From Candidatus Hodarchaeota archaeon (lineage in GTDB: Archaea; Asgardarchaeota; Heimdallarchaeia; Hodarchaeales; Hodarchaeaceae), in contig JAHQWW010000048.1 of the NCBI GenBank assembly GCA_029856365.1, forward strand, positions 1 through 25,407: a DNA stretch of 25,407 nt. Direction: 5' to 3'. Shown one piece after another: positions 3,372 to 17,509 of this stretch. How positions within the stretch are numbered: position 1 is the stretch's first letter; each line of letters starts with the position of its first letter. Below the pieces are notes generated by a model. That model searched no databases, was not told where the DNA came from, and was given only the letters and a program-made list of their open reading frames with translations. The translations under genes and the position numbers were made by a program.

Positions 3372-4429
3372 TGTTTTGAAACACCCGTATCTATTTGTGT
3401 TATGAATGACTCGCCATAGGTTTGTAATGCATCTCTTATTTTAATTGCACTTTCCTTCTCAGCCGCAAGTGCGAACATACATCCTCCAAAACCAGCACCA
3501 GTGAGTTTAGTTCCTAATGCTCCATTCTCTGTCGCACTTTTACACATAACATCAAGTTTTGGATGGGAAACTTGATAATTTTCTCTTAAATAATATTGTT
3601 GCTTTGTAAGAAGTCTACCGATATAGTACAAATCAATATTCGTTCTCTTCAGTTCTTTGAACGCAGCATCAGTATTTTCACGAATTCCAATAATTCCTTG
3701 TAAGCGTTTTTTATGTAATTGCGGTAGCTTTGCCGATTTAATATCTTCCTCGGTTAACTCATTCAACTTAAGATAGTTAAAATTCTTTAATGCATTAAAT
3801 ATATCCTGTTGAACTTTTTTCAAAGAAATATCTGCATTTCTTTCAACACCTGAGTTACCAATGATGAAATATGGCTTTCTTAAAGCTTGAAGAGATGTAA
3901 TATCAGGTTTTCCCTGTGAAGTCATGTGAAAAATTCCCCCTAAAGAACATGCATATTGATCCATCCTTCCACAAGAGATTCCTAATATGTCATGTTCGCA
4001 AAAATATGCTATTTCCGCAATTGTTTCTGCGTCAGGATTGTGCTTTAATACAATATCTGATATTAGAAGGACCATACTGGTTAGTAGAGCAGCTGAAGAC
4101 GATAATCCAGCCCGAATTGGGATTTTACTGTCGATTATTATTCTAGAAGGGAGAATAAGATTCAATTCCTCCCAGAAATAAAGAAATGCTGCCTTTAGAT
4201 AATCATAAGGAGAGTCAGTGATTTGAGGCTTATGAGAAAAAATGAGCTCTTCAGATTGTCTCATTTGATTACTCTGGAGTTTCACATAAGTTGGTCTCCT
4301 ATGGAGTTGATAATGTAATTTTAACCGCTTATTAATGGCCATTGGAATTACAGGCAGACCTAGATAATCTTGATGTTCACCAAAGAGGCAAATTCTACCA
4401 GGAGAACTAATAAATCCCTTTTTTTGCAT
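3368..4429 (-). CDS. GHMP-family sugar kinase (galactokinase-like)
   Basis: Motifs SPGRICLFGEHQDY, IP.RAGLSSSAA, CG.MDQYA and KLTGAGFGGC. The ATG at 4429 (MQKKG...) is preferred over the track start at 4495. Its stop overlaps the convergent gene's stop in a shared TTAA (3368-3371). Confidence 0.9.
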   Translation of the reverse strand: MQKKGFISSPGRICLFGEHQDYLGLPVIPMAINKRLKLHYQLHRRPTYVKLQSNQMRQSEELIFSHKPQITDSPYDYLKAAFLYFWEELNLILPSRIIIDSKIPIRAGLSSSAALLTSMVLLISDIVLKHNPDAETIAEIAYFCEHDILGISCGRMDQYACSLGGIFHMTSQGKPDITSLQALRKPYFIIGNSGVERNADISLKKVQQDIFNALKNFNYLKLNELTEEDIKSAKLPQLHKKRLQGIIGIRENTDAAFKELKRTNIDLYYIGRLLTKQQYYLRENYQVSHPKLDVMCKSATENGALGTKLTGAGFGGCMFALAAEKESAIKIRDALQTYGESFITQIDTGVSKH

Positions 4430-14032: not shown

Positions 14033-14806
14033 TCAAATTCGTAGAAAATCTTCGATTTTTTTGAATAGCTCTTCCGAATCAGGTTCTACGGTCAGTATAT
14101 GACCTGACTTAGGTAATTCAAGTATTTCAACTTCAATATTCGTAGTAAATTTCTGTTCTTTTGCATCTAAAATTGCTGAAATGGAAATCATGTCATCAAG
14201 GGCCCCATATGCAATCAAAGTGGGTATAGTAATACAAATTGGTTGTTGATGCATATACTTGAGAAAGCGTGTAAACTGGATGATTGAAGTAGTTGGACGA
14301 TACATATAACTATAGAGGTTGTGGTCCTTGAAATATTGGAGAGATTCTTCTCCCTTATACAAATATTTCTTAAAAATTTTCAAAAATGGGATTAATCTTA
14401 CTAATCGTGATTTCAGAGCAAATGGTGGTGCTAAAAGGATTAAATTTGGAATTTTTGCTTCAGGATGTTGATGAACGAAATAGAGGCATAATATCGCTCC
14501 TAAGGAGATTCCAATAGGGATAACAGTCTGACAGTGATCTTTGAGATTTGAAAACCCAGTTTCTACAGACTTATACCAATCATGCCAGGTGAATTGAGAT
14601 AATTCTTTATAATTTGTACCATGACCCGCTAATCGTATCCCATGAACTGTATAGCCTTTCTCATGGAGAAATTCACCTAAGGGTAGTGTTTCTGTAGGTG
14701 AGGCAGTAAATCCATGAACCAACAACACCCCTACTTCTGATCCTTCAAAATAAAATGATTTAGCAAGATGTTTTAACGATTCTAATTCATTAAAATCATT
14801 TTTCAT
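14033..14806 (-). CDS. Alpha/beta-hydrolase, carboxylesterase/monoacylglycerol lipase type
   Basis: GVLLVHGFT..P, L.GHGT, nucleophile elbow GISLG, acid G..DDMI and base SGH. Confidence 0.92.
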   Translation of the reverse strand: MKNDFNELESLKHLAKSFYFEGSEVGVLLVHGFTASPTETLPLGEFLHEKGYTVHGIRLAGHGTNYKELSQFTWHDWYKSVETGFSNLKDHCQTVIPIGISLGAILCLYFVHQHPEAKIPNLILLAPPFALKSRLVRLIPFLKIFKKYLYKGEESLQYFKDHNLYSYMYRPTTSIIQFTRFLKYMHQQPICITIPTLIAYGALDDMISISAILDAKEQKFTTNIEVEILELPKSGHILTVEPDSEELFKKIEDFLRI

Positions 14807-14879: not shown

Positions 14880-14920
14880 GTTCAAGAACATTCAAGAATC
14901 GTTTAACAAATGCAATTTAA
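14880..14920 (+). promoter_or_regulatory. Shared upstream element, copy 1: GTTCAAGAACAT-N19-TGCAATTTAA
   Basis: The 12-mer (14880-14891) is identical to 17470-17481 and contains the palindrome GTTC-AA-GAAC. The second box (14911-14920) matches 17500-17509 at 9/10 positions. Confidence 0.65.
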
Positions 14921-14955
14921 GTTTGCGTGAGAAATTTCAATCGAGAGGTTCTAGT

Positions 14956-16332
14956 GTGAACTGCAAAGTTATTATCACTAACAAGAAGATATCAAATGTT
15001 CTCTTGACAGTTATGCTTTGTTTAAGCAATCTAATTATATTGGGAGCTAAAGCCGACATTCAAGCACTTGTTGATCAACAATATCCGATTAAAATTGAAC
15101 AGAGTGAAATTCCCCTTTTTGGTGGGATTAATTCTATTCGTGTAATTATTGGAGAAAGCACAATTGGTGTACTCTATGGTACGATTGATAATCCTCAACC
15201 ACTCTACTTATTCACTGAATTCTCACAAAAAATAGCCACAGTTCAGATTTTCAATCGTCGAGGAACTCTAGAAAAAGAGATAGAATTGAATGTCCAAAAT
15301 ATATTTGCAGTTCGTTTGGATACTATAATTGAATTCTCTGATAGGAATAATGATGGTTTGTACAATGCCGTACAAGACCATATACCTCTAAAGATGGTAA
15401 ACCTTTCAGCGGTTTCATTCTATGTTACAAAAAATAATGATAGCTCGAGTTCTTCCGGAGATTACATCAGATATAATGTGAATTTTACCGCGAGGAACAT
15501 CTCTTATCAAAGGATTGATAATTCCCCTATCAGATCAACTTTAGATAGTCTTTGTTTTGCTTTTGAACTGACAATCGAACAAGACCAAGTAATAGTGTCT
15601 GAAGTTCCAATTATTTCTATTCATCCACAAGGTCTAGGTTTTGAAGTTTCTAAAACTGTTAATAGCGAAGGTTTACGAGCAAATCGCTTAACTCCTCGAT
15701 TGAAGTTTTCATGTAGTATTGTAGGATGGGATTATTCTTCATCCAAATCGAAGCTTTTGCTAAAAAGTGCAATGATAACGCGTGAGGAAATCTTGACGAC
15801 GTTAGGAGCAATATCTGGCAAAGATATAACTCGGGAAACCCTAAAATCAACTAATATCTTCAGTAGATTGACATTTAACGTTGAGCAAGACGGAGGAGCA
15901 AGACAGTCATATTTAGATCACAAAGAAAATCGTACCAAAGAATATTCTACTCGTAAGTTTTCAAATTTCCAGATATCTTTAGGAAATTCAATAAGGAATT
16001 TTCTGAATTTAACCTGGCAGCCTTATCTTGATGCAGATGGCAAGGATTATCCAGTGGTTTTTCAGTTATTAAAATCTGGCGAAGCAACCTTTCGTTTTCA
16101 TCACGCTAATCCGTTAACAAGTCTTTATCTAATTGGTGGATTTGTTTTTCCTCAAGGAGAGGAAATCTTTTATGACCCTGAAGTCCAACTAGAAGAATTA
16201 AATCCCATTTTCTCTATACCTAAGATACCAAATCGTTCAATACTAGAAGATAATAGCCTGATAATACTGATTTCAGGATTCTTCATAGGTATTTTGATCT
16301 TGTTCCATCAACTTACCAATAGACGGAGATAA
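14956..16332 (+). CDS. Secreted, C-terminally membrane-anchored surface protein (paralog A)
   Basis: Signal-peptide-like N-terminus ending A-K-A, a DxNxDG loop (IIEFSDRNNDGLY), beta-rich body, IFYDP motif, then a TM helix and RRR. GTG 14956 with GAGGT at 14945-14949 is preferred over TTG 14923. Confidence 0.8.
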   Translation: MNCKVIITNKKISNVLLTVMLCLSNLIILGAKADIQALVDQQYPIKIEQSEIPLFGGINSIRVIIGESTIGVLYGTIDNPQPLYLFTEFSQKIATVQIFNRRGTLEKEIELNVQNIFAVRLDTIIEFSDRNNDGLYNAVQDHIPLKMVNLSAVSFYVTKNNDSSSSSGDYIRYNVNFTARNISYQRIDNSPIRSTLDSLCFAFELTIEQDQVIVSEVPIISIHPQGLGFEVSKTVNSEGLRANRLTPRLKFSCSIVGWDYSSSKSKLLLKSAMITREEILTTLGAISGKDITRETLKSTNIFSRLTFNVEQDGGARQSYLDHKENRTKEYSTRKFSNFQISLGNSIRNFLNLTWQPYLDADGKDYPVVFQLLKSGEATFRFHHANPLTSLYLIGGFVFPQGEEIFYDPEVQLEELNPIFSIPKIPNRSILEDNSLIILISGFFIGILILFHQLTNRRR

Positions 16333-16383: not shown

Positions 16384-17271
16384 ATGACAGAGAATGAGGA
16401 GTATTCAGAAGCTGAATCAAAATCACTCCATAATATTTATGCTGCCTTAGGTCATGCCATTCGCTATGACATTGTTAATTATCTAGGAGCATTTCATAGA
16501 CCTGTAAATTATTCAGAATTAGTAGAATGGCTACAGATAAAACCTGGTTCCTTCTACTTCCATATGAGAAAGTTAAAGGATTTAGTTAACCAGAATTCAG
16601 AAAAGCTTTTTTACTTAACATCCACAGGACAACTAGCTTTAGAAGTAATAAGATCAGGAGAAAATTTACAATCTAGATCTCAAGTTTCTGTTGAAGAATC
16701 GAAAAGAGAAGAAATAATTCCCCCAAAGCGATTTTCAATTATTTTCTTTGGTGAATTTGTCCGTAGATCAGCATTCAATACCCAATTCAAGCTATTTATT
16801 TTATTGATAGTTATAACACAAATATTTCTCCTTGATTTTTCGAGGTTAGGAACGGTTCCCTTTTATCTTGATGGAAATCTATACTATGGGATTCTAGGTT
16901 GTATTATTGAATTATTTGGATCTTTCTTAATTGTCTGGGCTCTCCTAGAATTTGTGATACGTTTTTATAGCCCCATAAAGCACTTCTCAAGTGAACTCTT
17001 AACAGGGATTCCATTAGCAATGATACCACTATTTGTGTATCCGCTATTAGTAATTTTAGCAGATAGAATTCAATTTTTAGAGCAGATTGTATCACATTCA
17101 GCATTATCTATTACTATTATCTTCTTTCTACAAATAATAACCGCAATTTTTTTGGTTCAATTATTACAGGTAATTAAATCTGTTAATTTTGAAAGAGCTT
17201 TAGTACCTGTGTTCATTATCCTTTATGGTTTCAGTATCTTGAGTTTTATAATTTCTAATCTTTCATTCTAA
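16384..17271 (+). CDS. Membrane-tethered transcription regulator: ArsR-like wHTH plus ~5-TM domain (Yip1-like)
   Basis: The N-terminus IYAALGHAIRYDIV.YL....V.YSEL...L.IKPGSFYFHMRKL.DLV...FYLTSTGQ.A is an ArsR/HTH_20-type wHTH. The C-terminal ~160 aa are hydrophobic helices. Confidence 0.82.
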   Translation: MTENEEYSEAESKSLHNIYAALGHAIRYDIVNYLGAFHRPVNYSELVEWLQIKPGSFYFHMRKLKDLVNQNSEKLFYLTSTGQLALEVIRSGENLQSRSQVSVEESKREEIIPPKRFSIIFFGEFVRRSAFNTQFKLFILLIVITQIFLLDFSRLGTVPFYLDGNLYYGILGCIIELFGSFLIVWALLEFVIRFYSPIKHFSSELLTGIPLAMIPLFVYPLLVILADRIQFLEQIVSHSALSITIIFFLQIITAIFLVQLLQVIKSVNFERALVPVFIILYGFSILSFIISNLSF

Positions 17272-17469
17272 AGTCCAACAAGTGTTGAACAGATTTTTTT
17301 TATATATTTATTGATTTCTTCCGGTCTTATTTATACAAATATCGCTTCGAAGATTTTTTCTTTTTTTTTCATAGCTTGTGAGGCTATAGATGGGCTTTTA
17401 AAGAAATTTAATAACAATTTTCAGTTCAAAATGGTGAATTTAGGGATTTCAACATTTGTATAACATATT

Positions 17470-17509
17470 GTTCAAGAACATAGATTCTGTAAATTTAATT
17501 GCAATCTAA
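17470..17509 (+). promoter_or_regulatory. Shared upstream element, copy 2: GTTCAAGAACAT-N18-TGCAATCTAA
   Basis: TGTTC-AA-GAACA perfect palindrome at 17469-17480. It matches the element at 14880-14920 in sequence, orientation and spacing (one nt shorter). Confidence 0.65.

Follow-up and report, generated by a model that had tools for sequence, protein, structure and literature searches.

Membrane-tethered transcription factors have, to our knowledge, barely been studied in archaea, where ArnR is the main case. According to the excerpted text of PMC6396743, ArnR and ArnR1 of Sulfolobus acidocaldarius are membrane-bound one-component helix-turn-helix (HTH) regulators of surface-structure genes. 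In that account ArnR carries HAMP and sensor domains and two transmembrane (TM) helices, and its binding requires both of a pair of neighbouring boxes that precede the core promoter. These boxes are inverted repeats of the form TCGAC-N5-GTCGA and lie between -43 and -84 (PMC6396743). A different kind of archaeal control is provided by Phr of Pyrococcus furiosus, a soluble winged-helix heat-shock regulator with a palindromic promoter site, which is described in the excerpted part of PMC10746257 as a repressor of hsp20, of a thermosome-related regulon and of other heat-inducible genes. The heat-shock element (HSE) recognized by heat shock factor (HSF) is built in yet another way, from contiguous inverted nGAAn pentamers (PMC12366260, in the part of the article available).

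The window analysed here is the whole of a stretch of 25,407 nucleotides, contig C46 of an archaeal genome of 4.24 Mb (35% G+C, 204 contigs, 84% complete). The organism belongs to the Hodarchaeales, the Asgard group nearest to eukaryotes. A first-pass annotation of the window had drawn attention to an HSE-like array upstream of a gene for a membrane protein (gene A), close to a gene for a winged-helix-turn-helix (wHTH) protein of 295 residues (R295) and a second membrane-protein gene (gene B). Sequence comparisons indicate that the feature kept by evolution at this place is a conserved, locus-specific cis-regulatory module and not the nGAAn pattern. The features of the locus are the following.

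14033 to 14806, minus strand: divergent alpha/beta-hydrolase gene, which shares a 149-nt intergenic region with gene A
14880 to 14889, plus strand: first decamer, GTTCAAGAAC, which holds HSE units 1-2 and is an additional, accessory TTCAAGAA copy on the upstream side
14890 to 14907, plus strand: module A, ATTCAAGAATCGTTTAAC (TTCAA-N6-TTTAAC), which opens with the 10 bases of the second decamer (HSE units 3-4)
14914 to 14921, plus strand: third element, AATTTAAG, TATA-box-like, with TTTAA/TATAA conserved in the upstream-A alignment
14936 to 14948, plus strand: TTCAATCGAGAGG block just 5' of the start codon, near-invariant in 12 genomes
14956 to 16332, plus strand: gene A, 458 aa, GTG start; signal peptide, all-beta ectodomain, C-terminal TM helix, basic tail
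16384 to 17271, plus strand: R295, 295 aa; N-terminal ArsR-like wHTH (~12-97), disordered linker, multi-pass membrane domain (~121-293)
17447 to 17464, plus strand: module B, TTTCAACATTTGTATAAC (TTCAA-N6-TATAAC), before gene B
17470 to 17479, plus strand: GTTCAAGAAC, by its alignment position the third element (TATA-like/TTNAAG) of the B promoter
17566 to 19449, plus strand: gene B, 627 aa; signal peptide, followed by a large ectodomain, one TM helix at the C-terminus and a basic tail

The first-pass annotation had described positions 14880-14899 as four contiguous HSE-like units, and the letters are exactly as claimed: read directly in the window they are GTTCAAGAAC ATTCAAGAAT, that is, GTTCA-AGAAC-ATTCA-AGAAT. 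GTTCAAGAAC is found again at 17470-17479. Both the array and this second decamer are intergenic. Each precedes, on the sense strand, one of two genes that run in the same direction, the distances to the start codons being 76 nt and 96 nt, and the wHTH gene is situated between array and decamer. As a pattern, the array is at chance level genome-wide. When expectations are taken as the means of 10 genomes simulated with a third-order Markov model, the genome holds three four-unit arrays (one TTC-first, which is the array in the window, and two GAA-first) versus 3.3 expected, 126 arrays of at least three units versus 132.4, and nine plus-strand copies of GTTCAAGAAC versus 7.9. Three-unit arrays fall inside crude open reading frames in 105 of the 126 cases (83%), and the coding fraction is 82%. 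Within the window only, with up to one mismatch allowed, the four-unit pattern has two matches versus 0.24 expected, a number reached in 1 of 100 shuffles, and GTTCAAGAAC has three versus 2.28 (40 of 100 shuffles).

Orthologues of R295 with E < 1e-100 are present in 11 other genomes of the genus, from which 11 loci were compared, and the comparison was widened by two more MAG loci and five metagenome loci. Four units are retained in 4 of the 14 orthologous gene A promoters (the window, L022, L023 and L024), three in one (L021), two non-adjacent units in four and a single unit in five; like all the footprint counts given here, these overstate the evidence, as the relatives are not independent. 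The first decamer lies one helical turn upstream of the second and is retained as sTTCAAkAAy in about 9 of the 14 genomes. It is missing in L029, in L030/L031 and in L034, a close relative that has a single decamer and a regulator 85% identical to R295. Single decamers are also seen in the promoters of L059-L061, judged by eye. In a middle-distance group the GAA of unit 2 has become TAA and the TTC of unit 3 has become CTC, and the flanking TCAAGAATCGTTTAA is unchanged. The 20-base array is a tandem TTCAAGAA decamer, and its HSE resemblance is coincidental. The first-pass annotation had offered just such a fallback, a tandem 10-bp TTCAAGAA operator with an HSE look arising by coincidence, and this was essentially right; the repeat is the 5' part of the conserved module.

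A variant arrangement occurs at L030 and L031 (genomes G016 and G001), where the perfect palindrome TGAACA-TA-TGTTCA replaces the first decamer about 10 nt before the A module. Its left half occupies the first-decamer position and its right half is the module's first (TTCA) element. This core is shared with one of the SmtB/ArsR-type 12-2-12 repeats given in the excerpted text of PMC8790569, a likeness that hints at the docking of an ArsR-type dimer on the palindrome.

All 14 genomes can be aligned over module A, in which TCAA and T-TAA hardly vary, and the first conserved block upstream of gene A reads yTCAAGAATCGTTTAAy (14890-14907). The module stands 66 nt from the gene A start codon in 12 of the 14 genomes and 65 nt in the other two, and the DNA from 14890 to that codon aligns without indels, although the identity of the A protein falls to 34%. 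The third element, AATTTAAG, may act as the TATA box, and the TTCAATCGAGAGG block probably belongs to a 5' leader, its GAGAGG, 7 nt upstream of GTG 14956, resembling a Shine-Dalgarno sequence. If the third element is indeed the TATA box, the decamers lie upstream of BRE/TATA, the typical position of an activator site. If that role belongs to the TATA-like AAATATAAAAG just 5' of the array, which is confined to close relatives, the array would lie between TATA box and start, the position of a repressor site.

The start of gene A is GTG 14956 and not TTG 14923 of the mechanical ORF call, its column being aligned with ATG in relatives. The possibility that the coding sequence of gene A extends N-terminally across the array was considered and rejected: the signal peptide begins at the aligned GTG/ATG, and in-frame stops are found upstream of the start in 9 of the 14 genomes, because of which the region upstream of gene A is taken as non-coding. 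The frame through the array is open in the five closest genomes. One of the relatives, L024, has an in-frame ATG from which translation would read through the whole array, and this is a likely annotation trap.

Module B is conserved in all 12 genomes that have the region and in three metagenome loci. The place of the GAA triplet is held in the B-promoter modules by CAT, CAA, CGA or TAA, and the distance from module to start codon is variable, from ~70 to 105 nt. The decamer at 17470, called copy 2 in the first-pass annotation, is indeed a two-unit GTTCAAGAAC, but it is not a homologous copy of that at 14880 because it stands in a different register, as the third element of its promoter and not the first (14890-14899). 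TTCnnGAA is retained there in 1 of 12 genomes, and relatives have CTATAAGG, CTTAAG or TTTAAAG. Oligo-T tracts occur at 17283-17370, directly after the R295 stop codon; by their sequence they look like archaeal terminators separating an A-R295 unit from gene B, and they fit a separate promoter for B. At the metagenome locus L061 (~3555-3582), the B-promoter module is preceded by a CTCAAGAA decamer, so that in some lineages a tandem decamer is found at the B promoter as well.

Both promoters fit the 18-bp form nTTCAA-N6-TWTAAC, followed 6-7 bp later by a TATA-like TTNAAG element; in the B promoter a TTNAAG/TATAAG-like element follows after 5-6 nt. A position weight matrix (PWM) built from all module instances was scanned over the 8.48 million positions of the genome and placed module A first (25.7 bits) and module B second (22.3 bits), the next match having 19.9 bits. 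Fifty matches reach at least 14 bits, of which 10 (20%) are intergenic versus a non-coding fraction of 18%, and the best other intergenic match has 15.3 bits. The module is accordingly not a general promoter form, since only the two sites of the locus score high and the others are no more often intergenic. Circularity was avoided by a cross-promoter test, in which a PWM from 11 distinct B-promoter modules put the A site in 28th place among 8.48 million positions and a PWM from 10 distinct A-promoter modules ranked the B site 194th; with fewer sequences the ranks had been 50th (A) and 455th (B), and they improved when three more metagenome loci were added. Corrected for the ~150-300 nt searched, the similarity has p ~5e-4 to 7e-3 by our own arithmetic, and we regard it as moderately strong. 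The A module of the metagenome loci L059/L060 and the B module of L026 are identical at 16 of 18 positions. R295 homologues in other families (L013-L020) have different neighbouring genes, and no module of at least 12 bits was found near them, except for one of 15.2 bits in L017.

Gene A lies directly upstream of R295 in all 11 loci and gene B downstream in all 10 whose contig reaches that far, while protein identities fall to 34% (A), 55% (R295) and 50% (B); the alpha/beta-hydrolase gene is syntenic in 9 of 11 same-genus loci, and a convergent S-Me-THD-like gene is present at the same locus. Pfam has no family for A or B. The hydrophobic or TM segments of A are residues 11-35 and 429-455. BLASTP detects no similarity between A and B (best E 0.98), but the ESM Atlas yields only unnamed archaeal clusters for each of them, and the same two (431 and 437 aa) come up with both; the two proteins may be distant paralogues.

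The modelled ectodomain of gene A (pLDDT 74.2, pTM 0.73) forms a beta supersandwich like that of galactose mutarotases. Among its matches the luminal domain of GLMP, an animal lysosomal type I membrane glycoprotein, ranks first, with Foldseek E values of 3e-6 to 6e-6 and a VIA-align Z of 17.0 (rmsd 4.2 Å over 239 residues, 13% identity). The next matches are galactose mutarotases (Z 12-14) and the YidC P1 domain (Z 12). The membrane topology of A is the same as that of GLMP (type I). Since it comes from a predicted structure, the GLMP likeness is to be taken as a lead only; a literature search combining GLMP and Asgard found no paper.

R295 is assigned by Pfam to DUF7347 (31.7 bits versus a cut-off of 27.6), with HTH_20 below threshold (18 versus 27). 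When its N-terminus was searched at E values up to 10, HTH_20 and HTH_HVO_0163_N were weak matches and PF00447 was absent; beyond DUF7347 there is no other Pfam family and no HAMP or sensor domain, and residues 98-120 form a short, low-confidence linker. The structural model (pLDDT 72.6 overall, about 80 in the wHTH) has one 18-residue helix (80-97), a low-confidence linker (93-120) and then membrane helices. The hydrophobic segments (130-158, 166-195, 204-232, 231-269 and 269-295) and the predicted helices at 121-293 correspond to ~5-6 TM helices. Among its best 50 Foldseek matches, which are mostly ArsR/SmtB/MarR proteins with TMt 0.6-0.8, there is no HSF; they include 3f6o, 8qkf (SmtB), 5hs9 (YodB, TMt 0.80, rmsd 1.8), 1u2w (CadC), CzrA, HlyU and BigR, all with probability 1.00 and with E values of only 0.015-0.18 since the query was the full 295 aa. 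A PDB profile search gave ArsR only at E = 2 and ScaR only at E = 0.5. The model indicates that R295 folds like ArsR/SmtB and not like HSF, and the suggestion of an HSF-like wHTH next to the array did not survive this comparison, in which the domain groups with ArsR/SmtB and MarR.

Within the helix-turn-helix, residues P54, G55, S56, F57, Y58 and H60 are invariant in 12 orthologues, which fits the invariant TCAA and T-TAA positions of the module. A predicted homodimer of the wHTH (residues 1-120, two copies) scored 0.28 versus a mark of 0.42. The 69 homologues found carry Asgard-type labels throughout where they are named. With SmtB/ArsR systems R295 has in common its DNA-binding fold, a gene that adjoins the likely targets, and GTTCA/TGAAC-type half-sites. 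Unlike them, it includes a fused membrane domain of the multi-pass kind and falls below the HTH_20 cut-off, the host promoter is archaeal, and the site in the window consists of direct decamers and a pseudo-symmetric TTCAA-N6-TTTAA in place of the canonical 12-2-12 palindrome.

The enrichment of arrays before chaperone genes that an HSE would lead one to expect did not appear: the genome-wide counts equal chance, and among the seven stress genes of the genome (two thermosome and five HSP20 genes) none has an array of at least three units within 400 nt upstream. A two-unit site is found upstream of two of the seven, where the background mean is 0.56 per window over 3328 genes. Among these two is a lone GTTCAAGAAC on contig C183 (position 6604), ~370 nt upstream of a minus-strand HSP20 gene, which is treated as chance because the decamer is found in none of the eight orthologous regions of relatives. 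A PF00447 profile search of the 84%-complete genome gave no match, and control genomes were equally silent. A literature search on Asgard together with heat shock factor or element gave nothing relevant among the matches listed. Phr and R295 are alike as archaeal winged-helix regulators acting at promoters, the latter presumptively; unlike the Phr regulon as the excerpted text of PMC10746257 presents it, the motif here stands before no chaperone gene and the likely targets are membrane proteins.

The reading we favour, with a probability of about 0.55, is that the array is the 5' edge of a locus-specific promoter/operator of the A-R295 unit with TTCAA-N6-TWTAAC as its core, and that R295, as its most likely binder, would answer a membrane signal by regulating gene B and the operon to which R295 itself belongs. 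On this reading tandem duplication of a TTCAAGAAy decamer would have produced the 20-bp array at the 5' edge of the promoter/operator. The functional core would be the 18-bp module, with its second copy before gene B, and membrane-anchored R295 would bind both. A signal sensed at the membrane would then allow R295 to regulate the A-R295 operon and gene B, while in some lineages the added 5' decamer would, at a spacing of one helical turn, create a second, cooperative site. R295 is probably the binder of modules A and B because it is encoded between the only two strong modules, its position is conserved and its helix-turn-helix is invariant. A and R295, with a 51-nt gap, are probably on one transcript; we infer this co-transcription, along with the sign of regulation and the position of the transcription start.

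By architecture and description, the functionally nearest described case would be ArnR/ArnR1, as far as the excerpted text of PMC6396743 goes. R295 resembles these proteins in combining an N-terminal HTH with a C-terminal membrane anchor, in having probable cell-surface targets and in the presence of two adjacent cis boxes. Unlike ArnR in that account, it has no HAMP or sensor domain in Pfam and ~5-6 TM helices.

Part of the conservation of the module may reflect a basal promoter rather than an operator, since TWTAAC and the third element resemble TATA boxes. Taken to its end, this idea would make the whole block a basal promoter (BRE/TATA, initiator) and short leader of two strongly expressed membrane-protein genes, with no dedicated regulator and with the TTCAAGAA repeat as upstream context. 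We consider this unlikely, though it is the alternative to be taken most seriously. Across 1608 regions lying upstream of crude genes, hexamers of TATA type, TTTAAG and CTTAAA among them, show a 2.4-2.8-fold enrichment, and a core promoter with its leader would show the fixed 65-66-nt distance to the start codon that is seen at gene A. The general promoter consensus drawn from the same 1608 regions consists of diffuse AT-rich or TATA-like words only and does not place the TATA box or the start. Against a basal promoter speaks the specificity of the module, as only the two sites at the locus score high and the matches of at least 14 bits are intergenic at about the non-coding fraction; moreover, both promoters have the invariant TTCAA at a distance of 11 bp on the 5' side of the TATA-like element, a position outside the usual BRE. 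It is rather improbable that the module serves as operator for a regulator whose gene lies in another part of the genome, with R295 a passenger or a protein with other targets. The genome does have further wHTH paralogues of the DUF7347 type (contig C64 is one place where they occur), and the link between R295 and this DNA is one of position. This reading has to contend with the location of R295 between the only two strong modules of the genome and its persistence there in 11 of 11 same-genus loci, and also with the general rule that ArsR-type regulators usually autoregulate locally (general knowledge, and PMC8790569 in its excerpted text).

The fixed distance in A, and the sense-strand position of the two copies ahead of start codons, would equally suit a structured 5'-UTR element common to the A and B mRNAs. 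Such an RNA function is very improbable: RNAalifold predicted 0 base pairs for seven diverse A-upstream sequences, the TTCAA repeats are direct and not complementary arms, and the distance from module to start in B varies. It is for the first two of these reasons that the region is read as a site of DNA-level control. Least credible of all is a true HSE-like system, in which an oligomeric winged helix would read nTTCn/nGAAn units, with graded occupancy of four- versus two-unit sites and possibly a link to stress. The locus does offer four perfect contiguous inverted pentamers, retained in 4 of 14 genomes, a winged-helix gene nearby, an Asgard host and the further GTTCAAGAAC before an HSP20 gene on C183. 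Set against these are array counts equal to chance, the want of any chaperone gene with at least three units, and the absence of the C183 decamer from all eight orthologous regions. The pentamers themselves are not conserved: the unit-2 GAA and unit-3 TTC are lost in 5 of 14 relatives that retain the flanking TCAAGAATCGTTTAA, L034 has one decamer, the 17470 pair survives in 1 of 12 genomes, and the GAA triplets are dispensable in TTCAA-N6-TWTAAC. R295, in turn, is ArsR-like and membrane-anchored, and where HSF has its trimerisation repeats the model shows only the 18-residue helix, unlike the long heptad-repeat oligomerisation domain of HSF; PF00447 is unmatched in the 84%-complete genome, in a search that had no positive control. 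The HSE-like system, and with it the link to HSF or stress that the first-pass annotation had raised, is therefore largely refuted already. Just as hard to credit is a restricted version for the four-unit sub-lineage, in which R295 would form a higher oligomer with one subunit per TTC/GAA pentamer, a convergent or ancestral HSF/HSE-like geometry that gates GLMP-like membrane proteins and not chaperones.

With the failure of the HSE candidate, a tempting interpretation of this Asgard genome as eukaryote-like falls away. Under the preferred reading of a module bound by R295, what is left is a promoter-proximal operator beside a probable local wHTH regulator, its candidate binder on sequence grounds. 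This is a testable pair of cis-element and regulator, with two fixed-geometry modules and two co-conserved type I membrane proteins; a literature search on Asgard promoters found no Asgard cis-regulatory element. R295 also represents a family of ArsR-like regulators with a membrane anchor (DUF7347 and ~6 TM helices) that is as yet uncharacterised. The GLMP-like fold of gene A, if confirmed, adds a possible eukaryote-type membrane-protein fold to the locus.

At L015 and L016, in other families of the class, a more distant R295 homologue is followed by a different protein (~370 aa) with a signal peptide and a C-terminal anchor. The intergenic DNA of these two loci contains repeated TGTAAC/TGTAAG words, including GTTAC-N8-GTAAC in L015, and GTGTAAGTGAA is common to the L016 region and the A promoter of L034.
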